Shown here piece after piece: positions 1,956 to 64,000 of a DNA stretch of 64,000 nucleotides. This DNA is from a virus. Each line of letters opens with the position of its first letter. Position 1 is the stretch's first letter. The DNA lies in IMG/VR virus record IMGVR_UViG_3300034524_000011, positions 1-64,000 of that record. One strand, given 5' to 3'. A program made the position numbers and the translations under genes. Under the pieces are notes generated by a model. It searched no databases. It saw only the letters and a list, made by a program, of their open reading frames with translations, and was not told the DNA's origin.

Positions 1956-1959
1956 AGAA

Positions 1960-2280
1960 AAGCACCGTGCAAGCACAGTGCAAGTATAGTGCTTTTATTA
2001 TACCAATATCAGCCCAGCACAGGGAGAGCACTACAAAAAGAGAGATAATCTAAAAAACGGTTTTTGTTATTAAAAATGTCATAAAAACGATGAGGTTTAG
2101 GAAGCGTTTATAGCGCTTCTTTTTATTTATTCCAATTACTCCAAACCCAGCAATAATGCGGTTTTGCAAAAAGCATAGTGCAAGCACCATACAAGCACAG
2201 TAAAAGCACAGAACGAGCCCTGCTGGTACCCTATTACCTTTAACCTATTACCTTTTACCTTTTACCTATCACTGTATAGT
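1960..2280. repeat. Iteron-like 11-bp arrays (AAGCACNGTGC-like) plus 7-bp repeats (CTATTAC/CTTTTAC)
   Basis: 3 units at 1960-1992, 4 units at 2171-2214, then ~7 heptamers at ~2224-2275; conserved in copy B. Confidence 0.8.
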
Positions 2281-2337
2281 GCGACAGGTAGGACGGGAAA
2301 GGAGGGATAAATAAATCAAAGAGAGGAGAGATCCATC

Positions 2338-2571
2338 ATGGACACCAAAGGCTATCAATTAAGGGCCCGTTTCCTTCAGGAAGCTGAAGAGAAAGGACCA
2401 ACAGCACAAATGCTGATAGTAGCTGTCAAGCTGCCAACCGGAGCCGTCGAGCTTATCACAAACACGGCCCTGCTGCACACAAAGATAGACTACTACAAAA
2501 ACGCATATGATGAGGAATTCAGGCTAAAAGGGAACTCCAACGTGCAGATAGTAGGCTTCATGTTTGTGTAG
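2338..2571 (+). CDS. Hypothetical phage protein (77 aa) between terL and portal
   Basis: GAGGAG RBS; identical protein in copy B. Confidence 0.8.
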   Translation: MDTKGYQLRARFLQEAEEKGPTAQMLIVAVKLPTGAVELITNTALLHTKIDYYKNAYDEEFRLKGNSNVQIVGFMFV

Positions 2572-2605
2572 CCAGGACAAGGCGGAAAGGGAGGTGAGAA
2601 AGTAA

Positions 2606-7000: not shown

Positions 7001-7425
7001 CGGTAGAGGATTTCAGGACCGGCGGCAGCGATAACGTATTCACCAGGATAGGCGTCAAAAGCAAAAGTAACCCAAGATTTGACGACTGCTACCGTGGGAA
7101 CCGATATCGCATTCTTATTGATCCAAGAGTCATGGAAAGAACAGACTGGTACGCATACGATGGAGACTCCTTCGGGAGCTCGGATCCGTCGGCCATGGCC
7201 GGCAGAGTCTCACCGGTGGAATTCATCAAGCGAATGGCCACAAGCTACCGGTACGGCAATGAAATTATGTTCAGGCACGGCATAGCGAAGGAGACATTCA
7301 TCGGAATATCGTGTCAGAGCAATGCCCTGCGAGCAGAACTCCTGGAGAAGTTCAAACAGGCGCACATTACTAAGATAAACGGGATACCGATAGAAGATTT
7401 TGTAAAGGTGGGATCTACGATATGA
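4003..7425 (+). CDS. MuF/SPP1 gp7-like minor head protein with kinase-like, Rho-N-like and possible ART-like C-terminal domains (candidate polymorphic toxin)
   Basis: MuF signature IATTEMAFAYN...KVWSTAAD..CSIC...PPAHPRCRC; kinase-like GGTG..LFKP, DWLLANFDSHGGN, IGTDKE; ELKQLAKQKQIPYYNNMNKTQLV. Confidence 0.8.
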   Translation: MMFRIRKSIHLHPIYKAKKKSKAAQEVLDKLNTFLDATEPEPVFFLTRLWKDQQQAITYKELREAILNGYIDEKTIQAWQNDYANFVNEHLKPLWIEAMQAANADLMAAHPEYFFDPMSQGVLKWTNEHGAQWVTVITEEQKEAISAMLEHAYSGAFSVDELARAIRPTIGLTKVQAKANLNYYQHVKNTLLENNPGMKESTAQKKAQEAAAKYAAKQHRQRAFTIATTEMAFAYNKGADEGIKQAQEQNLIGKVVKVWSTAADEGVCSICGALDGVEVEMGADFDFKGNELYSGQKETPPAHPRCRCALLYVEKEPPKYQAVPDQEVIQNWNPEDQIPTPEHPESAKPIIPPAEKMPPGMKYKGKANLGGTGEMHLYIDDTGQEWLFKPAQSKAGKPEAFRAYVQEAGYKVQAIIDPDTAVPVGTGELGGKFGAYQKRITTISDKIDLKHWQYTSEQLPPGMAAQLQREHVTDWLLANFDSHGGNFVMDEAGRLIGTDKEQAFRYIKQIGAQQMSYTYHPNATYGETEPIYNTLFRRFAKGEIDLDLQDTLTYIKRVEAIPDNQYREIFRDYAEALYGKGKEAEELLDLIVERKNRLREDYRQFFSDLLTERTGKKQVFVWADEAAEHMKQPLTAVTHSPETLQKMNMAELKQLAKQKQIPYYNNMNKTQLVTAISDPVKAPEMSAQVRNRLLANEAARKAAARTPAAQKAKEIVSADEIFKDASIIPEKKLGVPVRSDKGSVEGLNLTARRMRLLDDASGTEYEVYEITGKLTRETWSKTWDKMKPIGEIGELEFELADDAKKLFASKADLGASIRSIKVIDGETTFELYIDGQTRRYNGWRGFFRLRTPVTSNGAADAANMRNMLQKLELDDLLLNPDSEAERVFKMSRLVWQHAPHRIQELDGLTPEQIPIKLDMIMRQEGIDPKRINNMKLVKVFDGYSTYVEEGIVETYKKAGLKYVWTGVPDADDIVKIIQSPGLMSNNNRFRAGLRRTGASPVEDFRTGGSDNVFTRIGVKSKSNPRFDDCYRGNRYRILIDPRVMERTDWYAYDGDSFGSSDPSAMAGRVSPVEFIKRMATSYRYGNEIMFRHGIAKETFIGISCQSNALRAELLEKFKQAHITKINGIPIEDFVKVGSTI

Positions 7426-7757
7426 TAGACCAAAGAGCTGTATACGTCTTCAAGCCACCGGGAGAAAAAGATTTCACCGGGATAGCGCTGGATGTTCACA
7501 TTCACAAAGAGACCCTCCGGTTCTTTGACACCAACAGAGGACACGAACTGCCAGGCAAGGTAACCCAGGAGACTGACAACGGATTTATATTCACATCAAC
7601 AGGAATCATTCAAGGGGAATGGCAGTTCAAAGTGCTGGGAATTGGAGAGTTTAAACGGAAATATTTCAAACTGGTCGAAGGCGGCCAAACGCTGGCGGCC
7701 AAGTTACAAACAACAGAGGACCTCCACCAATGGTATCGGAGGGAGTTCAAGATTTAA
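7422..7757 (+). CDS. Small protein coupled to MuF; candidate immunity protein
   Basis: ATGA overlap with the MuF stop; followed by a terminator; role inferred from position only. Confidence 0.5.
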   Translation: MIDQRAVYVFKPPGEKDFTGIALDVHIHKETLRFFDTNRGHELPGKVTQETDNGFIFTSTGIIQGEWQFKVLGIGEFKRKYFKLVEGGQTLAAKLQTTEDLHQWYRREFKI

Positions 7758-31672: not shown

Positions 31673-31719
31673 TTGACTATTAACCAACGGCGGTTTATAA
31701 TGTTCTCAAATAATGAGAA
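31673..31719 (+). promoter_or_regulatory. Sigma-A promoter with a repressor-type operator
   Basis: TTGACT-17bp-TATAAT (31673-31701) followed by TTCTCAAATAATGAGAA (31703-31719). Confidence 0.8.
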
Positions 31720-32837: not shown

Positions 32838-33776
32838 ATGAGAATGAAGAATATAAGAGACAGAATCGCCGGCGCATTGTACGGCGTAGCAATAGGGGAC
32901 GCATTAGGAGCTCCCCTGGAGTTCATGAGCAAGGAGGAGATTTCCAGGAAGCATGGCCGGGTAACAGAGATGATCGGAGGCGGCTGGCTGAACGTGATAC
33001 CAGGAGAGATCACCGACGACACACAGATGACCCTGGCAGTAGCTGAAGGAATTATAGAGGACCCGGACAACCCGATTAAGGCCATCGGTAAAAGGTTTAT
33101 CGAATGGGCCAGGAGCGGACCGAAGGACATCGGAGGAACCTGCAGCATGAGTATCCGCTGGGCCATCTTCCTGGGCCAAAATGATGCGCCAGACGAAGAG
33201 AAATGGTTCGAGGCAAGTAAATATACCTCCAAAGCAAACGGAGGCCGTAGCGGCGGAAATGGAGCGCTTATGCGCACGGTTTACCCAGGTCTTTATTACA
33301 AGGATTTGCTGATGGCGGTAGAGACGGCCGGAGCCATAGCACAAATGACACACTGGGATAAAAAATCAACAGAGGCTTGTAATTTATACACGGAAATGAT
33401 ACACTTAATTATCGAATCGGTTAATAAGGAACAGGCCCTGCAGATTATAAGAGACGTGCTCCAGGGAAGCGAATACTGCCTGGAAACCAGGAAGCAGCTC
33501 AACCCCACCGGGTACGTCGTGGACAGTTTCAAATGTGCCTTGCACAGCATTGCAGTTTCGCCGACCTTTGAGGAAGCAATTACCGAAGCTGTCAACCTCG
33601 GAGGAGATGCAGATACCATTGCAGCAATTACCGGAGGACTCGCGGGAGCCATCTATGGATATAATATGATACCGGAACGATGGATAAACACACTTGCACA
33701 AGCAATCAAGAATCGACTCGATAGGCTCGTAGACGCAGCGGTGAAAAATAGGGAGGATGTTAACAAAAATGGATAA
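32838..33776 (+). CDS. ADP-ribosylglycohydrolase (DraG/ARH family)
   Basis: GVAIGDALG, TDDTQM, GNGALMR, GGDADTIAAITG. Confidence 0.95.
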   Translation: MRMKNIRDRIAGALYGVAIGDALGAPLEFMSKEEISRKHGRVTEMIGGGWLNVIPGEITDDTQMTLAVAEGIIEDPDNPIKAIGKRFIEWARSGPKDIGGTCSMSIRWAIFLGQNDAPDEEKWFEASKYTSKANGGRSGGNGALMRTVYPGLYYKDLLMAVETAGAIAQMTHWDKKSTEACNLYTEMIHLIIESVNKEQALQIIRDVLQGSEYCLETRKQLNPTGYVVDSFKCALHSIAVSPTFEEAITEAVNLGGDADTIAAITGGLAGAIYGYNMIPERWINTLAQAIKNRLDRLVDAAVKNREDVNKNG

Positions 33777-34224
33777 CATATATGTTGTATATAATGGTGT
33801 ATATGAAGAACGTGAAGTAGTTTTGGTTACTACCTCACAAGATATAGCGATTAGAAAATATTTACAAATGGATGAATCGCCATTTATAGAAATATGGCAA
33901 GACGGAAAGTTTATAACGGTATTTGGCGATATGAAGTCGGATAATACTATAAAGGATTACGAGTCAATTAGAGATGAAATAGAAAAAAGACTTAAAAGAG
34001 TGAATTTCATGGGTAAAATAGAAAAGATAGAAACTAAAGCCTACATAAGCGGAGTAGATACAGTAACCAATTTTGATGGCTATTCATATTTGGATATTTT
34101 ATTGCCTTTTGATAAGGCAATAAGAATTTTTAAAATAGCGAATAACCAACAAGCTGTACCATTTAAAGTTACTTTTGAATTGGAAGATAATACAAACAGA
34201 GCCAACGGTAAAAGAGGGAGATAA
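33769..34224 (+). CDS. Hypothetical protein (AT-rich)
   Basis: ORF with RBS; lower GC than flanks. Confidence 0.55.
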   Translation: MDNIYVVYNGVYEEREVVLVTTSQDIAIRKYLQMDESPFIEIWQDGKFITVFGDMKSDNTIKDYESIRDEIEKRLKRVNFMGKIEKIETKAYISGVDTVTNFDGYSYLDILLPFDKAIRIFKIANNQQAVPFKVTFELEDNTNRANGKRGR

Positions 34225-34228
34225 GAAA

Positions 34229-34684
34229 ATGGATAAAAATATTTATTTTCCAGATTGGTTAACGGCAAATATAATGATAAGATCATTTTTAAAACAGTTT
34301 GGAGTATATGCATGGAATTATGAGGATGAGCCAACAAGGCTAAATGTAACGTTCCTTCCGCCTGGAATTTTCTATACAGTCCCAGAGGAAGATAGAGAAT
34401 TATTCGTAAGAATATACAACATTTTTTCAAATTGGGTTCAATCCAAAACTAATTTTAAATCAGCCATTGAAAAATATGTATATTCTCCAATGGTAGAAGA
34501 TGTCAAAAAGAGAATTGAACATACAATTCAAAGCATTATGTACAACTACGAAAAAAAGAGCGGAATTGAAATGAAAATATATCTTGCTGCATGCTTTGGA
34601 ATAGAGCCAGCATTCATATTACCTAAAGAGTTATTAGAAGAACTGAACAGAGCAGCTGGCAGTATTCAAAGGGAGGTGAAGTAA
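34229..34684 (+). CDS. Hypothetical protein (AT-rich)
   Basis: ORF with RBS. Confidence 0.55.
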   Translation: MDKNIYFPDWLTANIMIRSFLKQFGVYAWNYEDEPTRLNVTFLPPGIFYTVPEEDRELFVRIYNIFSNWVQSKTNFKSAIEKYVYSPMVEDVKKRIEHTIQSIMYNYEKKSGIEMKIYLAACFGIEPAFILPKELLEELNRAAGSIQREVK

Positions 34685-35014
34685 ATGAGTGACACGAGTA
34701 TGATTAAAAAGTGGCAATATTATGCCGTTCATGCAAAGAAGAAAAGAATCAGGAAGAAATACAGGAATAAACTTAACAATCACATGCTTAAGCTAATCGA
34801 GTTTATATCGGTTAAAAAGAAACTGGAAGAAAAAACAACGGTTGACATCGATGTACAAGGCATGACGAGAGTAGATAAATTCAAGGTCAGGCTGCCAGAC
34901 GGTAGGATAGTCACACACCCAGCCTTCATACGTGACGGGAAGGAGATAGACTGCATTTATATCGGATCTCCAGTTTATGGGGAAGAAATGATGGAAATGG
35001 TAAAACAACGGTAA
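34685..35014 (+). CDS. Hypothetical protein with a segment resembling the DGR-target N-terminus
   Basis: MTRVDKFKV...THPAFIRDGKEIDCIYIG versus target MVRIPKFKI...THPAFIVNGIEVPEIYIS. Confidence 0.55.
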   Translation: MSDTSMIKKWQYYAVHAKKKRIRKKYRNKLNNHMLKLIEFISVKKKLEEKTTVDIDVQGMTRVDKFKVRLPDGRIVTHPAFIRDGKEIDCIYIGSPVYGEEMMEMVKQR

Positions 35015-35116
35015 AAAGAAGGCGCCATGCCAGGTGGAATTCCCATAACTACCAAAAGAAATTTTAATTAAACTGTAAAGCCTTACCAAAGCAGAAAGAG
35101 GAGGAATTGAACTAAA

Positions 35117-35410
35117 ATGGCAGCATACGGTAGGCCACTAAAAGGAAAAACAAGGCGCGTACCAATTACCGTACACGTATTAATAGGTATGCTTGATATT
35201 ATAGATGAGTATGTCAATGAAAGATACCAACAGCAAAAAGGATATTCACGTTCTGATTTTTATAATGAGGCGGCCAAATTTTACCTTGAACATTTGGGAA
35301 GATTGCCAGAAAGAAATGATGAGCGTACCAAAATCGTACCAAAAAAAATTGAAGAGAGAAATAAATATGATAATAAAGATAATATTAATAATATAAATGA
35401 GCAAAAATAA
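35117..35410 (+). CDS. Ribbon-helix-helix-like DNA-binding protein
   Basis: GRP..RVPITVHV....DIIDEY......SRSDFYNEA pattern. Confidence 0.6.
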   Translation: MAAYGRPLKGKTRRVPITVHVLIGMLDIIDEYVNERYQQQKGYSRSDFYNEAAKFYLEHLGRLPERNDERTKIVPKKIEERNKYDNKDNINNINEQK

Positions 35411-36708: not shown

Positions 36709-36767
36709 ACCCCCTTTTACAAAAGCCCCGGCCAGGAAGCAGGCCAGGGTTTAATTTTTCCCGAAGT

Positions 36768-37123: not shown

Positions 37124-37699
37124 CTAAAGATCAGGAAACAATTCCTTCAAATACTCATAGTTTGCAGGAGACAGAGCCCGTGAAGTCAGAACACCCTGGA
37201 GCCAGAGCTCCATCCGGTTCTTGCGGCCACGCTCCGTTTTTAGCTGCGAAGCCTCTTCCCACGCGTGATCATAGGCACGCTTAAGGGCAGCATTAAATAT
37301 CTGATCACGACGAGATCTGATATCCCGCAGCTGCGCTTTAAAATCATTTTGAGCCAGGCCGGCCAAAGCAAGATCAGCGTCCGAGGCCGACGCCAGCTGC
37401 TCCAGGAAATATTCCGCAGCAAAGAAACATGTAATAAACTGCTGAAAAACGAGAGAGGAACTCGCAGCATTAGAGAACTTCACAAAGGCTTCATAAACCC
37501 TTACAAGCCGGTGTTCCAGGAAGGATTCGTCCACCCAGGCAACAGCACACCGGCAACCATCATGTAGCGGAGGCTCCAGGACAGAATGCCCCGCAATTTC
37601 AAAAACCTCATCAATCCTCACGGCCGTGCCTTCCAGTTTAGCACAAAGCGAACAGGTGCAATCGTCGGCCGATGAAGACCACACCTTAAACATACCCAT
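37124..37699 (-). CDS. Protein with an N-terminal MuF-like Cys/His domain
   Basis: KVWSSSADDCTCSLCAKLEG...PPLHDGCRCAV; GGAGG RBS before ATG 37699. Confidence 0.7.
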   Translation of the reverse strand: MGMFKVWSSSADDCTCSLCAKLEGTAVRIDEVFEIAGHSVLEPPLHDGCRCAVAWVDESFLEHRLVRVYEAFVKFSNAASSSLVFQQFITCFFAAEYFLEQLASASDADLALAGLAQNDFKAQLRDIRSRRDQIFNAALKRAYDHAWEEASQLKTERGRKNRMELWLQGVLTSRALSPANYEYLKELFPDL

Positions 37700-37750
37700 G
37701 ACCACCCTCCTCTCAATCCCAGAAGATAAAGTACCGCCGTAATTCGCGCT

Positions 37751-38167
37751 TTAAGCTTTCTCTTTGAAATCAACAACAGGCTCGGAGGACTTGATCTCTT
37801 CGAGCGTTTTCAACATGTCAATATATTCTGCGGCCTTCTCCTTTGCTTCAGGGGAAAGACTTTCAATTTTTTTAATAAGTTCTTTGTCGCCAGACGAAAT
37901 CGCCTCGGCCATCTTCGGCTTTGACTTCGACGTACCACATTTTGAGGATCTGGCTCGACCCATTTCATCGGATAGTCCCAGGATGAAATCGGCGGAGACG
38001 TCATAAAGCTCGATAAGAGCCCTAAGCGTTTCAGGGTCGGGTGTGGTTGCGTTATTCTCGTAGCGAGAAAGGGACTTATTGCTCAAGTTAATCGCCTTGT
38101 AGACATCAAGCTGAGTGAGACCTGCCCGTTCTCGAGCCATACGAAGACGTTCTCCAAAAGTGAGCAT
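37751..38167 (-). CDS. CI-like XRE repressor
   Basis: FGERLRMARERAGLTQ...LSRYEN...YDVSADFILG; divergent from the cro-like gene. Confidence 0.9.
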   Translation of the reverse strand: MLTFGERLRMARERAGLTQLDVYKAINLSNKSLSRYENNATTPDPETLRALIELYDVSADFILGLSDEMGRARSSKCGTSKSKPKMAEAISSGDKELIKKIESLSPEAKEKAAEYIDMLKTLEEIKSSEPVVDFKEKA

Positions 38168-38198
38168 AGAGACACCTCCATTCTAACATTATATAACA

Positions 38199-38300
38199 TT
38201 CGCAGGTTTTGAGAAAAATATTCTCAAAAATTTAGAAATAACTATTGACTTCTCGGAAAACGAGACTTAAAATAGGATTAGAATTCTCAATAATTGAGTA
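38199..38300. promoter_or_regulatory. Genetic switch: four 17-bp operators (TTCTCA-N5-TGAGAA consensus) and rightward promoter
   Basis: Sites at 38199, 38221, 38250, 38284 (another at 38522); TTGACT-17-TAAAAT at 38245-38273. Confidence 0.8.
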
Positions 38301-38320: not shown

Positions 38321-38551
38321 GTGAAGCCAATGCATCAGAGACTCCGAGAATATCGGGAGAGCAAAGGCGTGACCCAAACACACATAGCCAAGAAAACTGG
38401 CAAATCCGTTCAAAGGATAAGCGCGCTGGAAATAGGCGCAATCCGGCTGACGGTCGACGAATTCGAGGAGCTTTGTGTGAATGGCTACGAAGTCAACCCT
38501 GCAATTTTTTTTACGGATCAGTTCTCTAAAAATGAGAACATCAAGCCGTAA
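38321..38551 (+). CDS. Cro-like HTH regulator
   Basis: LREYRESKGVTQTHIAKKTG...ISALEIG; AAGGAGG RBS. Confidence 0.85.
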   Translation: MKPMHQRLREYRESKGVTQTHIAKKTGKSVQRISALEIGAIRLTVDEFEELCVNGYEVNPAIFFTDQFSKNENIKP

Positions 38552-39311: not shown

Positions 39312-39995
39312 ATGAAGCATTTCAGGAGAACAACAACCTTGATAATTGCCACGACAATAGTTTTCACAGGCAAAATAATGCTCGACTTGAACGCCGGAGG
39401 CCAGGAGGCACAAACCACATCCAGCGCGGTCGAGCCTGTACATACACAACAGCTCGAACCAGAGCCGACCATAGCAGCGATGATGGTAATCACTCCAAGC
39501 CCGACACCGGAACCGGAAGAGGATCCGGAACCACAGGTCAGATTTTACGACATCCCGCTTTCACGAGAGCTCCAGGAATACACCTTCAGGCTTTGCGAAG
39601 AGAACGGCCTGGATTACGAGATGGTCCTGGCATTGATGGACCAGGAGAGCGACTACCGGGAGAAGGTAATCAGCAAGACCAATGATTACGGCATCATGCA
39701 GATCAACGAGATCAACCACGAATGGCTCAAAGAGGAACTGGGAATAGACGACTTTCTGGAAGCAAAGCAGAACATTCGCGCAGGGATAAGGATCCTGGCA
39801 GAATTGACGGCAAAATACGAAGATCCGCACCTGGTATTGATGGCTTACAACTGCGGAGAGAGTGGAGCCAAAAGGCTCTGGAAACAAGGTAAAACTACGA
39901 GCGAATACAGCCGGTCGATAATGGCCAGAGCTGAAGAATTAAGAAAGGAGGCAGAGCAATGTCAACAGTATGCGGTAAATGCCAACGCCCACTAA
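39312..39995 (+). CDS. Membrane-anchored lytic transglycosylase (SLT domain)
   Basis: N-terminal hydrophobic segment; QES, GIMQIN, AYNCG motifs. Confidence 0.85.
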   Translation: MKHFRRTTTLIIATTIVFTGKIMLDLNAGGQEAQTTSSAVEPVHTQQLEPEPTIAAMMVITPSPTPEPEEDPEPQVRFYDIPLSRELQEYTFRLCEENGLDYEMVLALMDQESDYREKVISKTNDYGIMQINEINHEWLKEELGIDDFLEAKQNIRAGIRILAELTAKYEDPHLVLMAYNCGESGAKRLWKQGKTTSEYSRSIMARAEELRKEAEQCQQYAVNANAH

Positions 39996-41070: not shown

Positions 41071-41446
41071 AGCAGCCTTATTCCTTGGGAGAAGACCAAC
41101 AGATGAAGAAATGAAGTGGGCGCTTCCCAGGGCCAAGAAGAAACTCACCTGGATCATCGAGAGAGAAGGAGACGCTGACGGCATAAGACGGCAACCCTGG
41201 TACCTTGGAAAGCTGGTAGAAGAGGTAATCGTGGAAGAGGAATTCTCACAGTATACCCTTGCAAGATGCATGGAGATTGAAGCGCAGAGACAGGCTGCAG
41301 CTTCCGGGGAAAAAGAAAAAGGCCATCCTTTAACGGACGACCCAACCACGCTCCCATTATATCCCAGGGAGATGCAGTTTGTCAATCCAACCCAAAACTA
41401 TGAAACGAGGAGGATGACAAATGAAGCTGTTAACATTGAAACTTGA
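41039..41446 (+). CDS. Hypothetical protein
   Basis: ORF with RBS. Confidence 0.5.
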   Translation: MQATIQLIRDEAALFLGRRPTDEEMKWALPRAKKKLTWIIEREGDADGIRRQPWYLGKLVEEVIVEEEFSQYTLARCMEIEAQRQAAASGEKEKGHPLTDDPTTLPLYPREMQFVNPTQNYETRRMTNEAVNIET

Positions 41447-43397
41447 GAATTTTCAGGGACTGAAAGCAGAGGAATTCAATTTCAACGGCCACAGTGCCAG
41501 CATTTACGGAGACAACGCCACAGGAAAGACGACAGTATTCAACGCTATAACCTGGCTACTTTTTGGAAAGGCCAGCACAGGAGCAAAGAACTTCACACCA
41601 AAGACCAAAGGTCCTGACGGAGACCTTCACTACCTGGACCACGCAGCAGAGGCAACATTCAAGCTGCAGGATGGCCGGGTAATAACCCTCCGCAAGGTTT
41701 TCCACGAGGTCTACAAGAAAAAACGCGGATCGGCCACAGAAGAGTTTGACGGCCATACCATAGACTTTTATATCGACGGCGTGCCAACCAAGGAGAAGGA
41801 ATACGAAGCAACCATGCTTTCACTTTGCGGCGGCAGCGTCGAGAAAATGAAGATGCTGACCATGCCGAACTACTTCCCGGAAGAGATGAGCTGGGACGCC
41901 AGGAGAAAGATCCTGCTGGAGATTTGCGGGGACGTTTCAGACGAGGACGTAATCAACAGCACATCGGAGCTCAAAGACCTTCCAAAATTCCTTCTGAAGC
42001 CAGGAACCACTAATCAATACTACGATGTGGACGAATACAAGAAGATAGCCAGCGCCAAAAAGTCCGAAATCAATAAACAGCTTCAGGAGATACCCGGCCG
42101 CATCGATGAGGCCCGGAGAGCAATACCTGACATCACCGGCCTTGACCCGAAAGCCATAGACCAGAAGATCCAGGAGCTCAATAAACAGAAGAGTGAACTC
42201 GAAATGGAAAAGGCTCAGGCCTTAAGCGGAGACCTTACAACAATGGCCATCAGAAAACAAATATCCGAGGCCAATACCAGGCTTGCAGAAGCCAGGGCAG
42301 CATACGCTGCTAAAACAAGTAGCCTGAACGAAGGAACATACGCAGCAATAAACAGCCTGAAAAGAGATCAGATAACAGTAACAAACCGTATCCAGGACGC
42401 AAAAGCAGACCTGGAGAGAACCCAAAGGACCATAGAAAGGCTCAAGAGCCACAGGGAGAGCTTAATCAACGATTACATGGCCATACAGAAGGAGACCTGG
42501 GACGAAAGCAAGGAAACCTGCCCGACCTGCCACAGGCCACTTCCGGAAGAGGAAATCCAGAAGCTCCGCGAGGCATTCAACCTGCAGAAGAGCAGACGCC
42601 TGGAGCAGATAAACCTTCAGGGCCAGCGCGAATGCAGCAAGGAGATGATCACCGAGCTGGAGGAAAAGGCCAACACATTAAGAGAGCAGATCAAGAAGGA
42701 TGAGCAGCTTATAGAAGACTACGAACTGCAGCTCAAGGCTTTGCAGAGCCAGCTCAAGACGCCGGCGCCTTTCGAGAGCACCGAAGAATACGCCCAGATA
42801 ATGGCCGAGATTGCCAAACTTCGCGAAGAGGAAAACAACAAGAGCGGCCAAATGGAAGCAATAGCAGCCAAATACACAGAGCAGATCCAGGCCCTGAACG
42901 AACAGATCAGAGAGCAGGAACAGCTCAAGACCAAGATATTCATAGCAGAGAGCCAGAAGGAGAGAATCGCAGAGCTGGCCGCCAAGGAAAAGGAGCTTTC
43001 AAAGCAGTACGAGGAGCTGGAGAGAGGCATCTACCTCTGCGAAGTGTTCACAAAGACCAAGGTAAGCCTCCTGGACGACAAGATAAACAGCAAGTTCAAG
43101 AGTGTACGCTTCAGACTTTTTCAGGAGCAGCTTAACGGCGGGATCAAGGACGACTGCGAAGTCATGATACCTACCGAAGACGGCAGGATGGTACCTTTCA
43201 CCTTTGCAAACAATGCGGCCAGAATAAACGCCGGCCTGGAGATCATCGACACCTTGTCGAAGCACTGGAACCTGGCAATGCCGGTATTCATAGACAACGC
43301 CGAGAGCGTGACCAGGCTCCTGAAGATGGACACCCAGGTAATACGCCTGGTAGTTTCAGAGCCGGACAAGAAGCTCCGACTGGAGGTGGACGCATGA
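41421..43397 (+). CDS. SMC/Rad50-like coiled-coil ATPase
   Basis: GDNATGKTT, CPTC zinc hook, VFIDNAESV. Confidence 0.88.
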   Translation: MKLLTLKLENFQGLKAEEFNFNGHSASIYGDNATGKTTVFNAITWLLFGKASTGAKNFTPKTKGPDGDLHYLDHAAEATFKLQDGRVITLRKVFHEVYKKKRGSATEEFDGHTIDFYIDGVPTKEKEYEATMLSLCGGSVEKMKMLTMPNYFPEEMSWDARRKILLEICGDVSDEDVINSTSELKDLPKFLLKPGTTNQYYDVDEYKKIASAKKSEINKQLQEIPGRIDEARRAIPDITGLDPKAIDQKIQELNKQKSELEMEKAQALSGDLTTMAIRKQISEANTRLAEARAAYAAKTSSLNEGTYAAINSLKRDQITVTNRIQDAKADLERTQRTIERLKSHRESLINDYMAIQKETWDESKETCPTCHRPLPEEEIQKLREAFNLQKSRRLEQINLQGQRECSKEMITELEEKANTLREQIKKDEQLIEDYELQLKALQSQLKTPAPFESTEEYAQIMAEIAKLREEENNKSGQMEAIAAKYTEQIQALNEQIREQEQLKTKIFIAESQKERIAELAAKEKELSKQYEELERGIYLCEVFTKTKVSLLDDKINSKFKSVRFRLFQEQLNGGIKDDCEVMIPTEDGRMVPFTFANNAARINAGLEIIDTLSKHWNLAMPVFIDNAESVTRLLKMDTQVIRLVVSEPDKKLRLEVDA

Positions 43398-56363: not shown

Positions 56364-56948
56364 ATGGGGAAGCGCAAGGAAAATGTCTATCCGTGGGAAC
56401 GGATCCCAGGGGAGACTTCCAGGGAATATCAGAAGTTCTGTGCATACCGGGACATGAACTCATCGGATAAACCAATCCGGAAACGCAGCCTTCAAAGGCT
56501 GGCCAAGGAGCTGGGACTTTCACTGGACCACCTAAAGAAGTTAAGCGCGAAAAACAACTGGGTAGAACGAGCGGCCGCATATGACGCCTACCTGGAAGAG
56601 CTGGCCAGAGAGCAGAACGAGGCAGAGATCCTCAAAATGCGAAAGAACCATGCATTGCTGGCCTCTCAAATGATCACCAAGGCAGCCAAAAGGCTGCTGA
56701 CCATGCCGGAAGAGGAGATAACCGCAGCCGACCTCGTGCGCCTGGTCGATGTCGGAGTGAAAATCGAAAGATTGAGCCGCGGCGAATCCACCGAAAACAG
56801 ACAGATAAGCGGAGAAGCAAAGGTCATTCACCAGGGAGAAGTCACGGTTAAAAATCAGATGAACCTGGATCTTTCCCGCTTAACTGACGAGGAGCTGTCG
56901 GAGCTTGAACAGCTACTGGAAAAACTACATTCAGAGCCCGATGTTTGA
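56364..56948 (+). CDS. terS: Terminase small subunit (copy B)
   Basis: Upstream of terL; homologous to 1-505. Confidence 0.82.
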   Translation: MGKRKENVYPWERIPGETSREYQKFCAYRDMNSSDKPIRKRSLQRLAKELGLSLDHLKKLSAKNNWVERAAAYDAYLEELAREQNEAEILKMRKNHALLASQMITKAAKRLLTMPEEEITAADLVRLVDVGVKIERLSRGESTENRQISGEAKVIHQGEVTVKNQMNLDLSRLTDEELSELEQLLEKLHSEPDV

Positions 56949-58398
56949 TGTTAACGCTCTGCGGGAAGCGATCCTGAAGGAAAAGGCGGAGCGCAACCTT
57001 TCAGAGTTCATCAAACAAGCGTGGCATGTTATCGAACCAGGCACACCGTATGTAGAGAACTGGCACATCGATTTAATAAGCGAGTATCTCCAGGCGGTGG
57101 ATAACAGCGAGATATTGAGGCTTATAATCAACATCCCGCCACGGCACATGAAGTCCATACAAACAACAGTGTGCTACCCGGCCTGGTCATGGATCAAGAA
57201 ACCGACAAAGCGCTTCATAAAGGTTTCGTACAGTGACAGCTTATCCAGGAAGCACAACGTACTCTGCAGAGATATCATCAGGAGCCCATGGTACCAGAAA
57301 AACTGGGGAGACCGGTTCAAAATCAAGGACGACGTCGACAGGCAGGACGAGTTCAAGAACGACCACCACGGAATGATGTTCTCGACCAGCGTCGGCGGCC
57401 GATTAACCGGTGAAGGTGGAGATGTAATCATCGTGGACGACCCGCAGAACCCTCTCATGGCAAACAGCGCTACAGAGAGAGAAGCGTCAATAGCTTTCTT
57501 TAAGAACACGCTGCAGACCCGTCTGAATGACCCGAAAAAAGGCGCAATAATCGTAATCATGCAGAGGCTGCACGAGAACGACCTGACCGGTTACATCCTT
57601 TCAGAGCAGCTGGGATACGAGCATGTATGTCTGCCGGCAGAGGCTCCGGAGCGGACAGTTATTCATTTCCCGATAAGCGGCCGGGAGATCATCCGGGAGG
57701 AAGGAGACCTTCTCAATCCAGGACGATTTGACAAAGAGGCCCTGGAAGGCCTCAAAAAGTCCATGGGAAGCGCTCAATACGCCGGCCAATTCCAGCAGAC
57801 ACCGGCGCCGGCTGAAGGTCTTATCTTCAAGAGAGAATGGCTGGGGAATTTCTTCAAAACCGCACCACACCAGAACATGCTCATTCAATCCTGGGATATG
57901 CCGTTCACCAAAAGTGAAGGCAGCGCCAAATGTGCCGGCATAGTCATGGGGAGAAATGGAGCCAATATTTACATTCATGACCTGGTGAACGACAAAATGA
58001 CATTCACCGAGAGCGCGGCCGCGGTTCGAACACTAACCGGCAAGTGGCCAAAGGCCAGAGCGAAGGTTATAGAGAACAAGGCCAACGGTCCGGCCATTGT
58101 CGACTACCTAAAAAAAGAGATCCCAGGAATGGTAGAGTTCAACCCAAAGGGAAGCAAGGAAGAGCGTGCCATCAGTGTGACACCTTACTTTGAAGCAGGT
58201 AACATCTGGTTCCCGGATCCGGAAACGCACCCATGGGTGCATGACCTAATCAACGACCTTTTGATATTCCCAAAGGGGACATACAAGGACACCGTCGACG
58301 CCCTGGTGCAAGGGATTTTATACCTCATGGATAAACCATCTATGACAGGCCCACCAAAGACCAGTACGCTCACCAAGAGCAGCTACTGGCGGCGATAA
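56941..58398 (+). CDS. terL: Terminase large subunit (copy B)
   Basis: About 18 aa differences from copy A by eye. Confidence 0.95.
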   Translation: MFDVNALREAILKEKAERNLSEFIKQAWHVIEPGTPYVENWHIDLISEYLQAVDNSEILRLIINIPPRHMKSIQTTVCYPAWSWIKKPTKRFIKVSYSDSLSRKHNVLCRDIIRSPWYQKNWGDRFKIKDDVDRQDEFKNDHHGMMFSTSVGGRLTGEGGDVIIVDDPQNPLMANSATEREASIAFFKNTLQTRLNDPKKGAIIVIMQRLHENDLTGYILSEQLGYEHVCLPAEAPERTVIHFPISGREIIREEGDLLNPGRFDKEALEGLKKSMGSAQYAGQFQQTPAPAEGLIFKREWLGNFFKTAPHQNMLIQSWDMPFTKSEGSAKCAGIVMGRNGANIYIHDLVNDKMTFTESAAAVRTLTGKWPKARAKVIENKANGPAIVDYLKKEIPGMVEFNPKGSKEERAISVTPYFEAGNIWFPDPETHPWVHDLINDLLIFPKGTYKDTVDALVQGILYLMDKPSMTGPPKTSTLTKSSYWRR

Positions 58399-58402
58399 CA
58401 AA

Positions 58403-58725
58403 AAGCACTATACAAGCACAGTGCAAGTATGGTGCTTGAATGATACCAATACCAACCCAGCACAGGGAGAGCACAACAAAAGGTGAGGTAACCTCAAAAA
58501 CAGCGTCGAATGATAAAAATCGACACAAAAATGATGAGCTTACAAAAGCGTTCAAAACGCTTATTTTTTATTCGCTTCAACCGTTCCAAACCCAGCAATA
58601 ATGCGGCTTTGCAAAAAGCACAGTGCAAGCACCATACAAGCACAGTAAAAGCACAGAACGAGCCCTGCTGGTACCCTATTACCTTTAACCTATTACCTTT
58701 TACCTATTACCTATCACTATATAGT
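58403..58725. repeat. Iteron-like 11-bp and 7-bp arrays (copy B)
   Basis: 3 units at 58403-58435, 4 units at 58616-58659, heptamers follow. Confidence 0.8.
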
Positions 58726-58783
58726 GCGACGGGTAGGATGGGAAAGGAGGGATAAATAAAAACAAAGAGAGGAGAGATCCATC

Positions 58784-59017
58784 ATGGACACCAAAGGCTA
58801 TCAATTAAGGGCCCGTTTCCTTCAGGAGGCTGAAGAGAAAGGACCAACAGCACAAATGCTGATAGTAGCTGTCAAGCTGCCAACCGGAGCCGTCGAGCTT
58901 ATCACAAACACGGCCCTGCTGCACACAAAGATAGACTACTACAAAAACGCCTACGACGAGGAATTCAGGCTGAAAGGAAACTCCAACGTGCAGATAGTAG
59001 GCTTCATGTTTGTGTAG
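58784..59017 (+). CDS. Hypothetical protein (copy B)
   Basis: Identical protein to 2338-2571. Confidence 0.8.
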   Translation: MDTKGYQLRARFLQEAEEKGPTAQMLIVAVKLPTGAVELITNTALLHTKIDYYKNAYDEEFRLKGNSNVQIVGFMFV

Positions 59018-59051
59018 CCAGGACAAGGCGGAAAGGGAGGTGAGAAAGTAA

Positions 59052-60452
59052 ATGGCTAACAATAATTTCAGGGAAATCGGCCGCATCGGACAAAAAAGAT
59101 ATGGTGGCTTTTTCTATGAGGAATTCCTGAAAGATCTCCAGGGAAGGAAAGGCGTCGAGGTTTACAAGGAGATGAGTGAGAACGACGATGTAATCGGCGC
59201 AATCCTTTATGCGATCGAGATGCTGATCAGGCAAGTGTCCTGGACGGTTCAACCAGGAGGACCCACAACAAAGGACGAGGAGGCCGCAGAGTTCATCTAT
59301 CAGTGCATGGACGACATGCAGGACACCTGGACCGACACGATATCTGAAATCCTTTCATTTCTGACATACGGATGGAGCGCTCACGAAATCGTTTATAAGC
59401 GGCGCGCCGGCAAGAGCAAGGATCCTCGACTAAACAGCAAATACAGCGATGGCCTCATAGGATGGCGCAAGCTGCCGATCAGAGCGCAGGAGACCCTCTG
59501 GGAATGGCTATATGACGACGAGGACAATCTCCTGGGAATGGTTCAGATGCCGCCGCCAAAGTATGAGCTCATAACGATACCGATTGAAAAGCTGCTGATA
59601 TTCAGGACCAAGAGCCGAAAAGGCAGCCCGGAAGGCAAGAGCATTCTCCGTAACGCATACCGCAGCTGGTACTTCAAGCGCAGGATCCAGGAGATAGAGG
59701 GAATAGGTATCGAAAGAGACCTGGCCGGTTTTCCGACATTGACAGCTCCGGAGGGAATGAACATCTGGGACGAAGACGACCCGGAAATGGTAGCTGTCAG
59801 ACTGGCCGCAGACCGAATCGTCCAAAACATCAGGCGTGACAGCCTCGAAGGTTTGACATTGCCGGCCGGCTGGAAGCTGGAGCTCTTAAGCACCGGAGGA
59901 CGCCGGCAGTTTGATACCAATGCAATCATCGAGCGATACGACACCAGGATAGCAATGACCGTCCTGGCCGATTTCGTTTTATTAGGCCACCAGAAGGTGG
60001 GCAGCTTTGCATTATCCAGTGACAAGACGGAACTTTTTGCAATGGCCGTCGGTGCATACCTGGACATCATTTGCGAGACCTTCAACAACAAGGCAATCCC
60101 GGCACTGATTGATTTAAACGCTCAACACTTCGCCGGCATTACCGATTATCCGAAGCTGGGCCACGGAGACATCGAGAGCGCAGACATTCAGGCTCTGGCA
60201 ACTTACATCAAGGATATGACCGGCGTCGGCGTACTGGTACCGGACGACCATCTCGAAGATTACGTGAGAGAAGTGGCCGGCCTGCCGGAAAGGCTGGATG
60301 ATGGGACCAACCCCAGGCAGCCAAAACCGGCAAGGGACAGAAATTCTGACGTGAAGCCTGGCAAAGAGGCAGACAGTGACGACCTGGTAGATTTGGAGGA
60401 CGACGATGAAGCTGTAAAGAAGGCCATGGAGCGACTGGGGAGGTATGATTGA
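59052..60452 (+). CDS. Portal protein (copy B)
   Basis: Homologous to 2606-4006. Confidence 0.9.
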   Translation: MANNNFREIGRIGQKRYGGFFYEEFLKDLQGRKGVEVYKEMSENDDVIGAILYAIEMLIRQVSWTVQPGGPTTKDEEAAEFIYQCMDDMQDTWTDTISEILSFLTYGWSAHEIVYKRRAGKSKDPRLNSKYSDGLIGWRKLPIRAQETLWEWLYDDEDNLLGMVQMPPPKYELITIPIEKLLIFRTKSRKGSPEGKSILRNAYRSWYFKRRIQEIEGIGIERDLAGFPTLTAPEGMNIWDEDDPEMVAVRLAADRIVQNIRRDSLEGLTLPAGWKLELLSTGGRRQFDTNAIIERYDTRIAMTVLADFVLLGHQKVGSFALSSDKTELFAMAVGAYLDIICETFNNKAIPALIDLNAQHFAGITDYPKLGHGDIESADIQALATYIKDMTGVGVLVPDDHLEDYVREVAGLPERLDDGTNPRQPKPARDRNSDVKPGKEADSDDLVDLEDDDEAVKKAMERLGRYD

Positions 60453-63400
60453 TGTTCAGGATCCGGAAGTCAATTCACCTGCACCCGATACACAAGGCAA
60501 AGAGGAAGAGCAAAGCAGCACAAGAGGTCCTCGACAAATTAAACGCATTCCTGGACGCAACGGAACCGGAGCCGGTTTATTTCCTCACCAGGCTATGGAA
60601 CGACCAGCAGCAGGCAATAACATACAAGGAGCTGCGTGAGGCAATCCTCAACGGCTACATCGACGTGAAGACCATCCAGGCCTGGCAAAACGACTACGCA
60701 AACTTTGTAAACGAGCACCTGAAGCCCCTATGGATAGAGGCCATGCAGGCAGCAAATGCAGACTTGATGGCAGCGCATCCGGATTATTTCTTTGACCCCA
60801 TGAGCCAGGGTGTCCTCAAATGGATCAACGAACACGGTGCCCAATGGGTAACGGTAATAGCGGAGGAACAGAAGGAAGCAATATCGGCCATGCTGCAGCA
60901 TGCATACAGCGGAGCCTTCACCGTAGATGAGCTGGCCAGAACGATCCGGGCGACAATTGGCCTAAATAAGGTCCAGGCCAAGGCCAACCTGAACTATTAT
61001 CAGCATGTGAAGAAAACTCTTCTGGAAAACAACCCAGGCATGAAGGAATCAACGGCCCAGAAAAAAGCCCAGGAAGCAGCAGCGAAATACGCGGCCAAGC
61101 AGCATAGGCAAAGAGCTTTCGCCATAGCAACAACAGAAATGGCATTCGCTTATAACAAGGGAGCTGACGAGGGAATAAAGCAAGCCCAGGAGCAGAACCT
61201 TATAGGCAAGGTGGTGAAGGTTTGGAGCACGGCAGCCGACGAACTCGTATGTTCTATATGTGGAGCCCTGGATGGTGTCGAACTGGAGATGGGCGCAGAT
61301 TTTGATTTCAAAGGCAACCAGTTATACAGCGGTCAGAAGCAAACGCCGCCAGCTCACCCACGCTGCAGATGCGCGCTGCTTTACGTGGAGAAGGAACCGC
61401 CGAAATACAAGACGGTACCGGAGCAGGAAGTGATCCAGGACTGGAGCCCGGAAGATCAGATACCAACGCCCGAACCTCCGGACCCGGCAAAGCCCGTAAT
61501 ACCACCGTCAGAGAAAATGCCACCAGGCATGAAATACAAAGGCAAGGCAAACCTCGGAGGAACCGGGGAAATGCATTCATACATCGACGAGACCGGCCAG
61601 GAGTGGTTATTCAAACCGGCACAAAGTAAATCCGGAAAACCGGAAGCCTTCAGAGCATATGTCCAGGAAGCCGGTTATAAGGTCCAGGCGATAATAGATC
61701 CGGACACAGCGGTACCGGTAGGAACAGGAGAGCTGGGCGGGAAGTTTGGAGCTTTCCAGAAGCGAATAAACACCATAGGCGACAAGATAGACCTGAAGCA
61801 CTGGCAATACACCAGCGACCAGCTGCCGCCAGGAACGGCCGCACAGCTGCAGAGGGAACATGTAACTGACTGGCTGCTGGCCAACTTCGACAGCCACGGC
61901 GGCAACTTCGTAATGGACGACGCCGGCAGGCTCATAGGAACAGACAAGGAGCAGGCCTTTAGGTACATCAAGGAAATAGGCGCCCAGCAGATGAGCTACA
62001 CATACCACCCTAACGCAACCTACGGAGAAACAGAGCCGATTTATAATACTTTATTCCGGAGGTTTGCAAAGGGAGAGATTGACCTGGATCTGCAGGATAC
62101 CTTGACCTACATCAAGAGAGTGGAGGCGATCCCGGACGACCAGTATCGTGAGATATTCAGGAGCTATGCAGAGGCCCTTCACGGGAAAGGCAAAGAAGCA
62201 GAGGAGCTGCTGGACCTGATCGTCGAGAGAAAAAACCGGTTAAGAGAAGACTATCGTCAGTTTTTCAGTGACCTTCTCACCGAGCGAACCGGAAAAAAAC
62301 AAGTGTTCGTCTGGGCGGACGAGACAGCAGAGCATATGAAGCAGCCACTGACAGCAGTAACACACGGCTCGGAAACCCTGCAAAAGATGAACATGGCAGA
62401 GCTCAAGCAGCTGGCCAAGCAAAAGCAGATCCCATACTACAACAACATGAATAAGACCCAGCTGGTAACGGCCATATCGGACCCGGCAAAAGCGCCGGAA
62501 ATGAGCGCCCAGGTAAGAAACAGACTGCTGGCCAACGAGGCAGCAAGGAAAGCTGCAGCAAGGACGCCGGCAGCACAGAAGGCCAAAGAGATTATATCTG
62601 CAGATGATGTGTTCCAGGACGCGTCGATTATTCCGGAGAAAAGGCTGGGAGTTCCAGTCAGGAGCGACAAGGGCAGCGTTGAAGGTCTCAATTTGACGGC
62701 CAGGAGAATGCGCCTGTTAGACGACGCAAGCGGTACCGAATATGAGGTATACGAAATATCCGGAAAACTCACCAGGGAAGCATGGTCCAAGACATGGGAT
62801 AAAATGAAGCCAATAGGAGAAATAGGAGAGCTGGAATTTGAGCTTGCAGACGATGTCAAAAAGCTCTTTGCTTCCAAGGCGGACCTCGGAGCTTCCATCC
62901 GGACCATAAAGGTAACCGACGGAGAAACCACATTCGAGCTTTATATCGATGGCCAGACAAGGAGATACAATGGATGGCGTGGTTTTTTCAGATTGAGAAC
63001 TCCGGTAACCTCAAACGGAGCTGCGGACGCTGCAAATATGAGAAACATGCTGCAGAAGCTGGAGCTTGATGATCTTTTATTGAAACCGGACAGCGAGGCA
63101 GAAACGATCCTCAAAAAGAGCCGGCTTGTATGGCAACACGCTCCACATCGTATCCAGGAATTAGATGGTTTGACGCCAGAGCAAATACCGATTAAACTGG
63201 ATATGATATTAAAGCAAGAAGGAATAGACCCGAAGCGTATAAATAACATGAAGCTGGTTAAAGTCTTCGAAGGCTATTCAACTTATGTCGAAGAGGGCAT
63301 CGTGGAAACATACAAGAAGGCAGGCCTGAAATATGTCTGGACCGGAGTTCCGGACGGAGACGACATCGTGAAGATCATCCAAAGCCCTGGCCTGATGTCA

Positions 63401-63871
63401 AATAACAACCGTTTCAGGGCAGGATTGAGGCGCACAGGAGCAAGTCCGGTAGAAGACTTCCGGACCGGCGGCAGCGATAATGTATTCACCAGGATAGGCG
63501 TCAAGAATAAGAACAACCCAAGATTTGACGACTGCTACCGAGGGAACCGATATCGCATTCTTATTGATCCAAAAGTCATGGAGAGAACCGACTGGTATGC
63601 ATATGAAGGAGACTCGTTCGGAAGCTCGGATCCGTCGGCACTGGCCGGCAGGCTTTCGCCGGTGGAATTTATTCAGAGAATGGCCACAAGCTACCGGTAC
63701 GGGAACGAAATCATGTTCAGGCACGGAATAGCTAAGGAGACATTCATCGGGATATCATGCCAGAGCAACGCGCTCCGAGCAGAGCTCCTGGAGAAGTTCA
63801 AACAGGCGCATATTACTGCAGTAAACGGGATACCGATAGAAGATTTTGTAAAGGTGGGATCTACGATATGA
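60449..63871 (+). CDS. MuF multi-domain protein (copy B)
   Basis: 1140 aa; all motifs of copy A conserved. Confidence 0.8.
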   Translation: MMFRIRKSIHLHPIHKAKRKSKAAQEVLDKLNAFLDATEPEPVYFLTRLWNDQQQAITYKELREAILNGYIDVKTIQAWQNDYANFVNEHLKPLWIEAMQAANADLMAAHPDYFFDPMSQGVLKWINEHGAQWVTVIAEEQKEAISAMLQHAYSGAFTVDELARTIRATIGLNKVQAKANLNYYQHVKKTLLENNPGMKESTAQKKAQEAAAKYAAKQHRQRAFAIATTEMAFAYNKGADEGIKQAQEQNLIGKVVKVWSTAADELVCSICGALDGVELEMGADFDFKGNQLYSGQKQTPPAHPRCRCALLYVEKEPPKYKTVPEQEVIQDWSPEDQIPTPEPPDPAKPVIPPSEKMPPGMKYKGKANLGGTGEMHSYIDETGQEWLFKPAQSKSGKPEAFRAYVQEAGYKVQAIIDPDTAVPVGTGELGGKFGAFQKRINTIGDKIDLKHWQYTSDQLPPGTAAQLQREHVTDWLLANFDSHGGNFVMDDAGRLIGTDKEQAFRYIKEIGAQQMSYTYHPNATYGETEPIYNTLFRRFAKGEIDLDLQDTLTYIKRVEAIPDDQYREIFRSYAEALHGKGKEAEELLDLIVERKNRLREDYRQFFSDLLTERTGKKQVFVWADETAEHMKQPLTAVTHGSETLQKMNMAELKQLAKQKQIPYYNNMNKTQLVTAISDPAKAPEMSAQVRNRLLANEAARKAAARTPAAQKAKEIISADDVFQDASIIPEKRLGVPVRSDKGSVEGLNLTARRMRLLDDASGTEYEVYEISGKLTREAWSKTWDKMKPIGEIGELEFELADDVKKLFASKADLGASIRTIKVTDGETTFELYIDGQTRRYNGWRGFFRLRTPVTSNGAADAANMRNMLQKLELDDLLLKPDSEAETILKKSRLVWQHAPHRIQELDGLTPEQIPIKLDMILKQEGIDPKRINNMKLVKVFEGYSTYVEEGIVETYKKAGLKYVWTGVPDGDDIVKIIQSPGLMSNNNRFRAGLRRTGASPVEDFRTGGSDNVFTRIGVKNKNNPRFDDCYRGNRYRILIDPKVMERTDWYAYEGDSFGSSDPSALAGRLSPVEFIQRMATSYRYGNEIMFRHGIAKETFIGISCQSNALRAELLEKFKQAHITAVNGIPIEDFVKVGSTI

Positions 63872-64000
63872 TAGACCAAAGAGCTGTATACGTCTTCAAG
63901 CCACCGGGAGAAAGAGATTTCACCGGGATAGCGCTGGATGTTCACATTCACAAAGAGGCCCTCCGGTTCTTTGACACCAACAGAGGACACGAGCTGCCAG
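63868..64000 (+). CDS. Candidate immunity protein (copy B, partial)
   Basis: Homologous to 7422-7757; cut by the window end. Confidence 0.5.
   Translation, partial: MIDQRAVYVFKPPGERDFTGIALDVHIHKEALRFFDTNRGHELP

Follow-up and report, generated by a model that had tools for sequence, protein, structure and literature searches.

Locus organisation

The window (the whole stretch of DNA that was analysed, 64,000 nt) comes from a 75.9 kb phage record in IMG/VR and contains the ORF191 locus. Four consecutive genes on the minus strand were coding for a cI-like repressor, ORF191, a 114-aa PH-fold protein and a tyrosine integrase (int), with a cro-like gene diverging from cI. The features and their coordinates are shown in Table 1. 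The likely start of ORF191 was the ATG at 37699, which has GGAGG ahead of it. No Pfam peptidase match was obtained for the 138-aa cI.

The spacer from the cI stop to ORF191 was 51 nt and that from ORF191 to the PH-fold gene 11 nt. No terminator-like site was found in either spacer, the first one being located after the PH-fold gene. The spacers, the promoter-like site and the placement of the hairpin together give the anatomy of an operon of cI, ORF191 and the PH-fold gene with int behind the terminator, and the three genes thus appear to form an operon-like arrangement. The structural genes are on the other strand, and some 30 kb separate ORF191 from the head genes and portal. The position of ORF191 directly downstream of cI on the opposite strand, given in the first-pass annotation, was confirmed, with the 51-nt gap free of any terminator-like site.

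Palindromes resembling TTCTC-N7-GAGAA occurred 9 times in the window against 1.9 expected, and 5 of the 9 were in the cI/cro interval. Perfect copies outside this interval were found at 31703-31719, ahead of accessory genes near the lysis end, and at 38522-38538, at the end of cro.

Contigs from four anaerobic-digester metatranscriptome runs spanned int, the PH-fold gene and the whole of ORF191; these are assembled contigs that carry no strand information, and DNA carry-over is possible. Some of the pieces almost matched the window, with 3 differences over 362 nt. One contig (37115-37911) extended from ORF191 into the 3' end of cI and another bridged the PH-fold gene and ORF191, and the contigs left parts of cI uncovered. 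The RNA-library contigs are a weak hint of ORF191 expression.

Table 1. Features of the ORF191 locus and of the portal-MuF region in the window
Feature	Position	Strand	Basis or description
Mu-type portal, 466 aa	2606..4006	+	Portal_Mu E 5.9e-41
MuF, 1140 aa	4003..7425	+	Phage_Mu_F 38.8 bits, residues 207-310; then ~800-aa extension; Rho_N 644-676
Tyrosine integrase, 383 aa	35557..36708	-	Pfam
Terminator-like hairpin, 8 pairs, 7 GC, T-rich tail	36726..36749	-	Between PH-fold gene and int
PH-fold protein, 114 aa	36768..37112	-	Start 11 nt past ORF191 stop
ORF191, 191 aa	37124..37699	-	Open frame 37124-37705
ORF191 residues 61-191 + stop, 7-helix domain	37124..37519	-	AF2 model; wider-family profile; phrog_7974/phrog_17596 in members
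ORF191 residues 1-58, MuF-type zinc module	37526..37699	-	Pfam; PHROGs; alignment to MuF; AF2 beta module 3-57
cI-like repressor, 138 aa	37751..38167	-	HTH_3 residues 8-61, E 9.5e-14; phrog_8, phrog_3
Five TTCTC-N7-GAGAA-like palindromes	38150..38300	.	cI/cro divergent region
Sigma-70-like promoter TTCTCA-16-TATAAT	38188..38215	-	Upstream of cI; overlaps operator-like palindrome 38199-38215

Other features of the phage genome

The late region (terminase, portal and MuF) was present twice, at 1-7554 and 56444-64000, 56.4 kb apart. With 761 mismatches and 15 gaps, the two copies share only 89.7% identity, so the record cannot be one circular genome that simply wraps round; two related phages may be joined in tandem, or the assembly may be a chimera of two strains. 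No relative of the resident 1140-aa MuF was found in the PDB by sequence, and the Rho_N/SAP-like motif at residues 644-676 was the sole other Pfam match in its extension. A 111-aa ORF without a Pfam family (7422-7757) overlaps the MuF stop, which is the usual immunity-gene slot of MuF toxin loci. The portal had at least 7976 homologous clusters, the best 120 of which were 69-95% identical and included Heliomicrobium modesticaldum HM1_0049 (82%). The head module is far more widespread than the lysogeny module, ORF191 having only 43 clusters, and this points to a mosaic genome.

An intact ADP-ribosylglycohydrolase gene (PF03747, E 3e-65) was found at 32838-33776, near the attachment end, and its product was 65-86% identical in three related phages (L001, L003, L013). 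The GC content drops to 37% between 34000 and 36000, compared with about 49% elsewhere. Four small plus-strand ORFs without a Pfam family (33757-35410) look like recently acquired cargo beside the att region. The early region contained a gene for a 658-aa SbcC/Rad50-like ATPase (41421-43397; AAA_23), with a weak Rad50 zinc-hook match below the Pfam cut-off. Among the early genes, just after the putative excisionase, was also a gene for an SLT lytic transglycosylase with a hydrophobic N-terminus (39312-39995), which was kept in most related loci.

The N-terminal zinc module of ORF191

Alignment of residues 1-60 of ORF191 with residues 251-315 of the phage's own 1140-aa MuF gave 22 identical positions of 65 (34%) at a pairwise E of 4e-12. 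The CxxC and PPxHxxCRC motifs were in register, with each motif Cys and His aligned, and Cys16, Cys19, His46, Cys49 and Cys51 of ORF191 were nearly invariant in 36 family members. The resemblance of the N-terminus to the resident MuF, proposed in the first-pass annotation, is therefore real and exceeds chance.

Pfam Phage_Mu_F matched ORF191 with E 8.7e-6 and 26.9 bits, which did not reach the gathering cut-off of 29.6. The match covered only positions 66-111 of the 112 in the profile (the last ~45%), with up to ~60% missing upstream, and TIGR01641 scored 19.7 (E 8e-4) against a cut-off of 39.65. Twelve MuF-type PHROGs matched the same ~55 residues, and in BFVD many MuF proteins matched only the ~60-column zinc module. 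Because of the partial profile coverage and the score below the cut-off, ORF191 is described here as having the MuF zinc sub-domain and no MuF domain. What had been called a stand-alone MuF domain proved to be no more than the zinc sub-domain at the C-terminal end of MuF.

In a canonical 319-aa MuF, the zinc module is the very C-terminus and is 34% identical to that of ORF191. A tblastn search of INPHARED with ORF191 produced one match, an ordinary portal-adjacent 319-aa MuF. Since in long MuFs the cargo comes after the zinc module, the layout of ORF191 is that of a MuF end plus cargo without the MuF body. No long protein sharing words with residues 1-60 was found, and hence no recent donor MuF of the module emerged. 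An orphan MuF cassette for recombination was considered and rejected, as the protein identity to the resident MuF was only 34%.

A portal or terminase gene is nearby for 85% of the muf genes in phage genomes (PMC5576092); ORF191 had no such neighbour, nor did its counterpart in 15 related loci. Compared with MuF and SPP1 gp7 (PF04233, PF06152; TIGR01641), the CxxC...PPxHxxCRC zinc module of ORF191 is homologous, whereas ORF191 has no upstream part of the domain and lies off the packaging module, on the opposite strand, in the putative repressor operon. In the MuF polymorphic toxin family, immunity genes are found directly downstream of muf (PMC5576092). ORF191 showed no full MuF domain and no toxin-family match of its helical domain in Pfam or PADLOC, and in one sub-lineage no gene was present downstream. 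HExxH was absent from its 191 residues, and no Pfam match to Peptidase_M78/DUF955, the ImmA-type families, was obtained at E <= 1. The predicted complex of ORF191 with the portal, made with two alignments and without controls, scored 0.00, which speaks neither for nor against contact. The literature search found no MuF-portal structure.

Predicted structure and the helical domain

AlphaFold2 with a 36-sequence alignment predicted ORF191 with a pLDDT of 92.2 and a pTM of 0.87, as a small beta module (residues 3-57) followed by seven helices (residues 64-187). The motif DQIFNAAxKRAYD...LKTERGRKNR lies in the 7-helix domain. No signal peptide or membrane helix was found in the protein.

The helical part had no Pfam family, no PADLOC model and no convincing PDB neighbour. 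Foldseek with the ORF191 model gave nothing below E 0.49 in the PDB, and a sequence search of the PDB with the family profile gave only one chance-level match of 13 bits. The best Z obtained with VIA-align against 48,161 chains was 7.1, for three-helix pieces of MIT type, a score no better than noise for a helical model; its rows covered residues 58-191 only, so this comparison barely bears on the zinc module. The best BFVD rows (E 5e-3 to 2e-2 over 126-145 columns; proteins of 304, 381, 199 and 177 aa) are suspected to be family members. PADLOC-DB 2.0 gave no match at E <= 0.1 for either ORF191 or the PH-fold protein. As the His of 'KRAYDH' is not conserved, a HEPN-like Rx4-6H motif at this place was rejected.

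Close relatives of ORF191

The close relatives of ORF191 formed 43 clusters with 45-100% identity and lengths of 132-260 aa. The 15 loci examined (9 viral contigs, 4 MAG contigs and 2 metagenome contigs) all belong to one phage lineage, and in 15 of 15 the gene was located between cI and int, with homologous cI, cro, HTH and integrase genes. The lineage is a temperate phage of anaerobic Clostridia-type bacteria, the MAG relatives being from Clostridia, Dethiobacter and Bacillota. Among the sampled genomes of the phylum of the Dethiobacter MAG, 3 of 401 had a match, in uninformative contexts, and a metagenome scan yielded nothing beyond this lineage and short contigs.

In two of the loci (L032 and L036) the element was found beside guaA, which makes it a real prophage. 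The convergent guaA (GMP synthase) gene follows the lineage's integrase gene in both (L032 6452-7990, L036 6829-8031), and that of L036 ends ...STIEWE. This supports integration at the 3' end of guaA.

Pairwise dN/dS was 0.18 for ORF191, with similar values in both halves, 0.08 for cI, 0.05 for the PH-fold gene and 0.07 for int, these values being rough because dS was near saturation. ORF191 is a constrained gene under purifying selection that evolves faster than its neighbours.

Two phages (L007 and L008) had the helical domain only, as a protein of 143 aa from the first possible start, encoded directly after cI; the cluster representative that matches this form (P0043) was 132 aa. As both still have the helical domain, the MuF module is accessory and dispensable. 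Both also retain a 78%-identical MuF gene, so that loss of the module is not tied to loss of MuF, and their cI proteins were 79-83% identical. An extra N-terminal zinc ribbon (CxC...CPxC) was present in about 9 clusters.

The gene downstream of ORF191

The gene 3' of ORF191 was the PH-fold gene in eight loci (L001-L004, L007, L008, L010 and L036). In three others (L006, L012 and L013) a 164-aa protein with a zinc ribbon and a TM segment was encoded, its start overlapping the stop, and in L011 the downstream gene was coding for a TM and Pro-rich protein. No gene was found between the ORF191 homologue and int in L005 and L032, and with one sub-lineage lacking an intervening gene the downstream partner is not obligatory. 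The zinc ribbon of the 164-aa protein is the one fused N-terminally in family variants of about 250 aa (39% identity over 36 aa, E 6e-6); being common to the 164-aa protein and the long variants, it links ORF191 functionally to a membrane protein.

The model of the PH-fold protein had a moderate pLDDT of 64. In the structural comparison, all 50 of the 50 rows listed were PH-like folds (PH, PTB, FERM F3 and similar; Z 9.7-12.2), 146 chains had Z >= 8, and the Atlas neighbours were GRAM/bPH_3. The description of this gene as PH-like was right on this moderate model.

The wider family of the helical domain

A profile of residues 61-191 was run against 1.84 billion representatives with a cut-off of E 1e-3, and it retrieved 76 representative clusters, of which 21 were below 1e-10. 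One Arg, Leu-Lys-Thr and one Gly were invariant or nearly so. ORF191 fits this helical 'LKTExGR' family by a profile match over the ~130-residue domain and by the conserved R...LKT.xG. The first-pass annotation had described a fusion to an unrelated helical domain; the helical fold was modelled with confidence, and the domain is no orphan, since it belongs to a wider phage family.

Of 75 proteins examined, about 33 had N-terminal membrane helices by a crude hydropathy scan and 5 had DUF4236, with single cases of TM2, SAP and TerB_N; tandem copies of the helical domain also occurred. The literature search found nothing on the function of DUF4236. Phrog_7974 was matched by 37 of the 75 and phrog_17596 by 30. 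The direct match of ORF191 to phrog_17596 was only E 0.092, and its link to phrog_7974 is through the retrieved proteins. The TerB_N case (P0060, helical domain plus TerB_N) is probably the one member in 75 that matched the PADLOC model SngA of Shango (E 5.8e-12). To judge from these sequences, the helical domain is a mobile module and the constant core of a modular phage protein family.

A MuF-type Pfam match was found in 12 of the 75 clusters. Most of these have the zinc module in front of the helical domain; in P0051 it follows membrane helices, and in P0097, P0106 and P0074 it is at the C-terminus. P0097 and P0106 end in a Phage_min_cap2 stretch of ~100 residues. Two modules that are fused in several arrangements usually work together, and the repeated fusion points to a functional link between the MuF module and the helical domain.

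Relatives were also found at other sites. One was a lone opposite-strand gene between terL and regulatory genes on another viral contig. Gp15 of phiCD38-2 (L038 6001-6642; NC_015568.1 10168-10809) combines DUF4236 with the helical domain as a divergent member, with the motif ELKTEKAR and an hhalign E of 8e-4 at a probability of 25%. The gp15-type gene lies between the tail-chaperone and tape-measure genes in the C. difficile phages phiCD38-2, phiCD146, phiCD111, CDSH1, slur17 and AR1075-1.

Possible function of ORF191

The reading that we tentatively favour, at somewhat less than an even chance, is that ORF191 is a prophage-expressed accessory gene (moron) of the superinfection exclusion or abortive infection kind. 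The protein has two parts, a zinc module from the C-terminal end of MuF and a 7-helix domain; it would be cytoplasmic, and its gene would be transcribed together with cI in lysogens. Through a partner that varies (the PH-fold protein in this phage), the helical domain may act at the membrane or together with it. The N-terminal module would be exchangeable (MuF knuckle, zinc ribbon or none), and the zinc module could be what recognises a target common to MuF and to phages that are entering or assembling, candidates being the portal, MuF itself or the DNA ends. Homology, architecture, position, purifying selection and domain shuffling are observed, and transcription in the lysogen, action at the membrane and anti-phage activity are what we infer.

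The exclusion or moron reading is supported by the conserved position, purifying selection with a faster rate than in the neighbours, the mobile helical module, the fusions, the membrane-linked partner slot and the other insertion points, and weakly by the RNA-library contigs. The repurposing of a head-morphogenesis domain in the lysogen, proposed in the first-pass annotation, is partly supported, by locus anatomy, conservation, purifying selection, the interval in common with the exclusion gene ltp of TP-J34 and the variable membrane-linked partner; contact with portal or capsid is not supported, and two related phages without the MuF module retain both the helical domain and a MuF gene. Against the moron reading, some relatives are encoded within structural modules and in the same direction, as would equally be expected of a morphogenetic protein, and the dN/dS of ORF191 would also be expected from weaker constraint. 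In addition, neither ORF191 nor the PH-fold protein has a PADLOC model, ORF191 has no membrane helix and the partner is sometimes absent.

Known accessory genes give partial parallels. The rexA-rexB genes of lambda are co-transcribed with cI and comprise a soluble and a membrane-associated component. By analogy, the ORF191 locus may likewise pair soluble and membrane-linked accessory products with cI, but there is no homology and the partner of ORF191 is variable and sometimes absent. The superinfection exclusion gene ltp of phage TP-J34 is located between the integrase and cI-like repressor genes and is transcribed in the prophage (PMC3952083). ORF191 has the same position between repressor and integrase genes, whereas Ltp is a lipoprotein of the cell surface. 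Neither a signal peptide nor a membrane helix is present in ORF191, and the two have no sequence similarity. For the wider family, the exclusion moron gene 15 of HK97 presumably occupies the same site as gp15 of phiCD38-2, the interval between tail-chaperone and tape-measure genes. HK97 gp15 is a membrane protein that blocks DNA entry (PMC4737114); any likeness would concern the position of the relative phiCD38-2 gp15 and not ORF191 itself. The likeness to Shango comes from P0060, probably the one protein in 75 with a SngA match; TerB_N is absent from ORF191, and no Shango genes were seen in its vicinity.

In many Gram-positive prophages an ImmA-type metalloprotease is encoded beside cI, and ORF191 would be its positional counterpart if it were a lysogeny-switch factor that acts on the repressor or on integration and excision (anti-repressor, co-repressor or stabiliser). 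In the related loci the gene always adjoins cI, the metal ligands are conserved, and the cI of this phage is without a Pfam peptidase match, so that a further factor may be required for induction. A putative metalloproteinase is encoded next to the cI-like gene in TP-J34 (PMC3952083). We consider this role rather unlikely, since ORF191 has no HExxH and its Cys4/His site looks structural, two phages with 79-83%-identical cI are entirely without the zinc module, and a role confined to cI is hard to square with members that have membrane helices, DUF4236 or TerB_N or that are encoded far from any repressor.

A similarly low probability is given to ORF191 being a morphogenetic or virion-associated protein (an assembly chaperone, for instance, or an internal protein that is ejected) whose role is mainly lytic and whose gene merely happens to be near cI. 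The zinc module derives from a head protein, P0097 and P0106 carry the Phage_min_cap2 stretch, and phiCD38-2 gp15 is co-oriented within tail genes. ORF191, however, is on the anti-late strand, in the putative repressor transcription unit, about 30 kb from the head genes; a complete MuF already adjoins the portal in the same phage, and everything upstream of the zinc module is missing from the MuF domain of ORF191.

A more specific form of the exclusion reading, in line with the portal decoy of the first-pass annotation and in our view unlikely, is that the zinc module mimics MuF. A protein of the lysogen would capture or sense the portal/MuF complex of a superinfecting relative, or the ejected MuF with the DNA end, and signal via the helical domain to the membrane partner. 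If this were true, ORF191 would stand for a new class of exclusion or abortive systems that reuse a part from head morphogenesis, and membrane-anchored, DUF4236 and SngA-like proteins would have in the helical domain a new conflict-system domain in common.

It is less likely still that ORF191 is an immunity protein which shields the lysogen against the effector part of the 1140-aa MuF, whether this arrives by injection from sibling virions or is produced when the prophage is induced. Any such antidote would be needed in the lysogenic state, and many immunity proteins are small, helical proteins. The ~800-aa extension of MuF resembles the kind described for MuF polymorphic toxins (PMC5576092). 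Against this, the immunity genes of those toxins are directly downstream of muf (PMC5576092), a slot filled here by the 111-aa ORF at 7422-7757; no toxin domain was identified in the MuF extension by Pfam or by PDB sequence search, and the helical domain also occurs in phages and architectures without such a MuF nearby. That ORF191 is a decaying, functionless remnant of a partial MuF duplication, as the presence of only a fragment of the MuF domain might suggest, is highly improbable given 43 clusters that keep their full length down to 45% identity, 10 invariant columns, a dN/dS of 0.18 in both halves and a confident fold prediction.

Under the favoured moron reading, ORF191 is of a known kind, an accessory gene in the lysogeny module, and its new parts are the helical domain and a MuF zinc sub-domain encoded away from the packaging module. 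The literature search found no description of a MuF zinc sub-domain employed outside head assembly, nor of a domain like the helical one, which has no Pfam family and recurs in phage proteins together with membrane anchors, DUF4236 or TerB_N. Genes that are co-read with the repressor are where temperate phages keep functions that change the host, including the exclusion of rival phages. That the two modules have been fused repeatedly and independently offers a testable hint at the binding partner of the conserved MuF end, a question unsettled even for SPP1 gp7. Should the family exclude phages, it would be a new type of protein for prophage-encoded immunity, and otherwise an ordinary conserved hypothetical; in the former case it would also open a way into C. 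difficile phage genes, phiCD38-2 gp15 among them.
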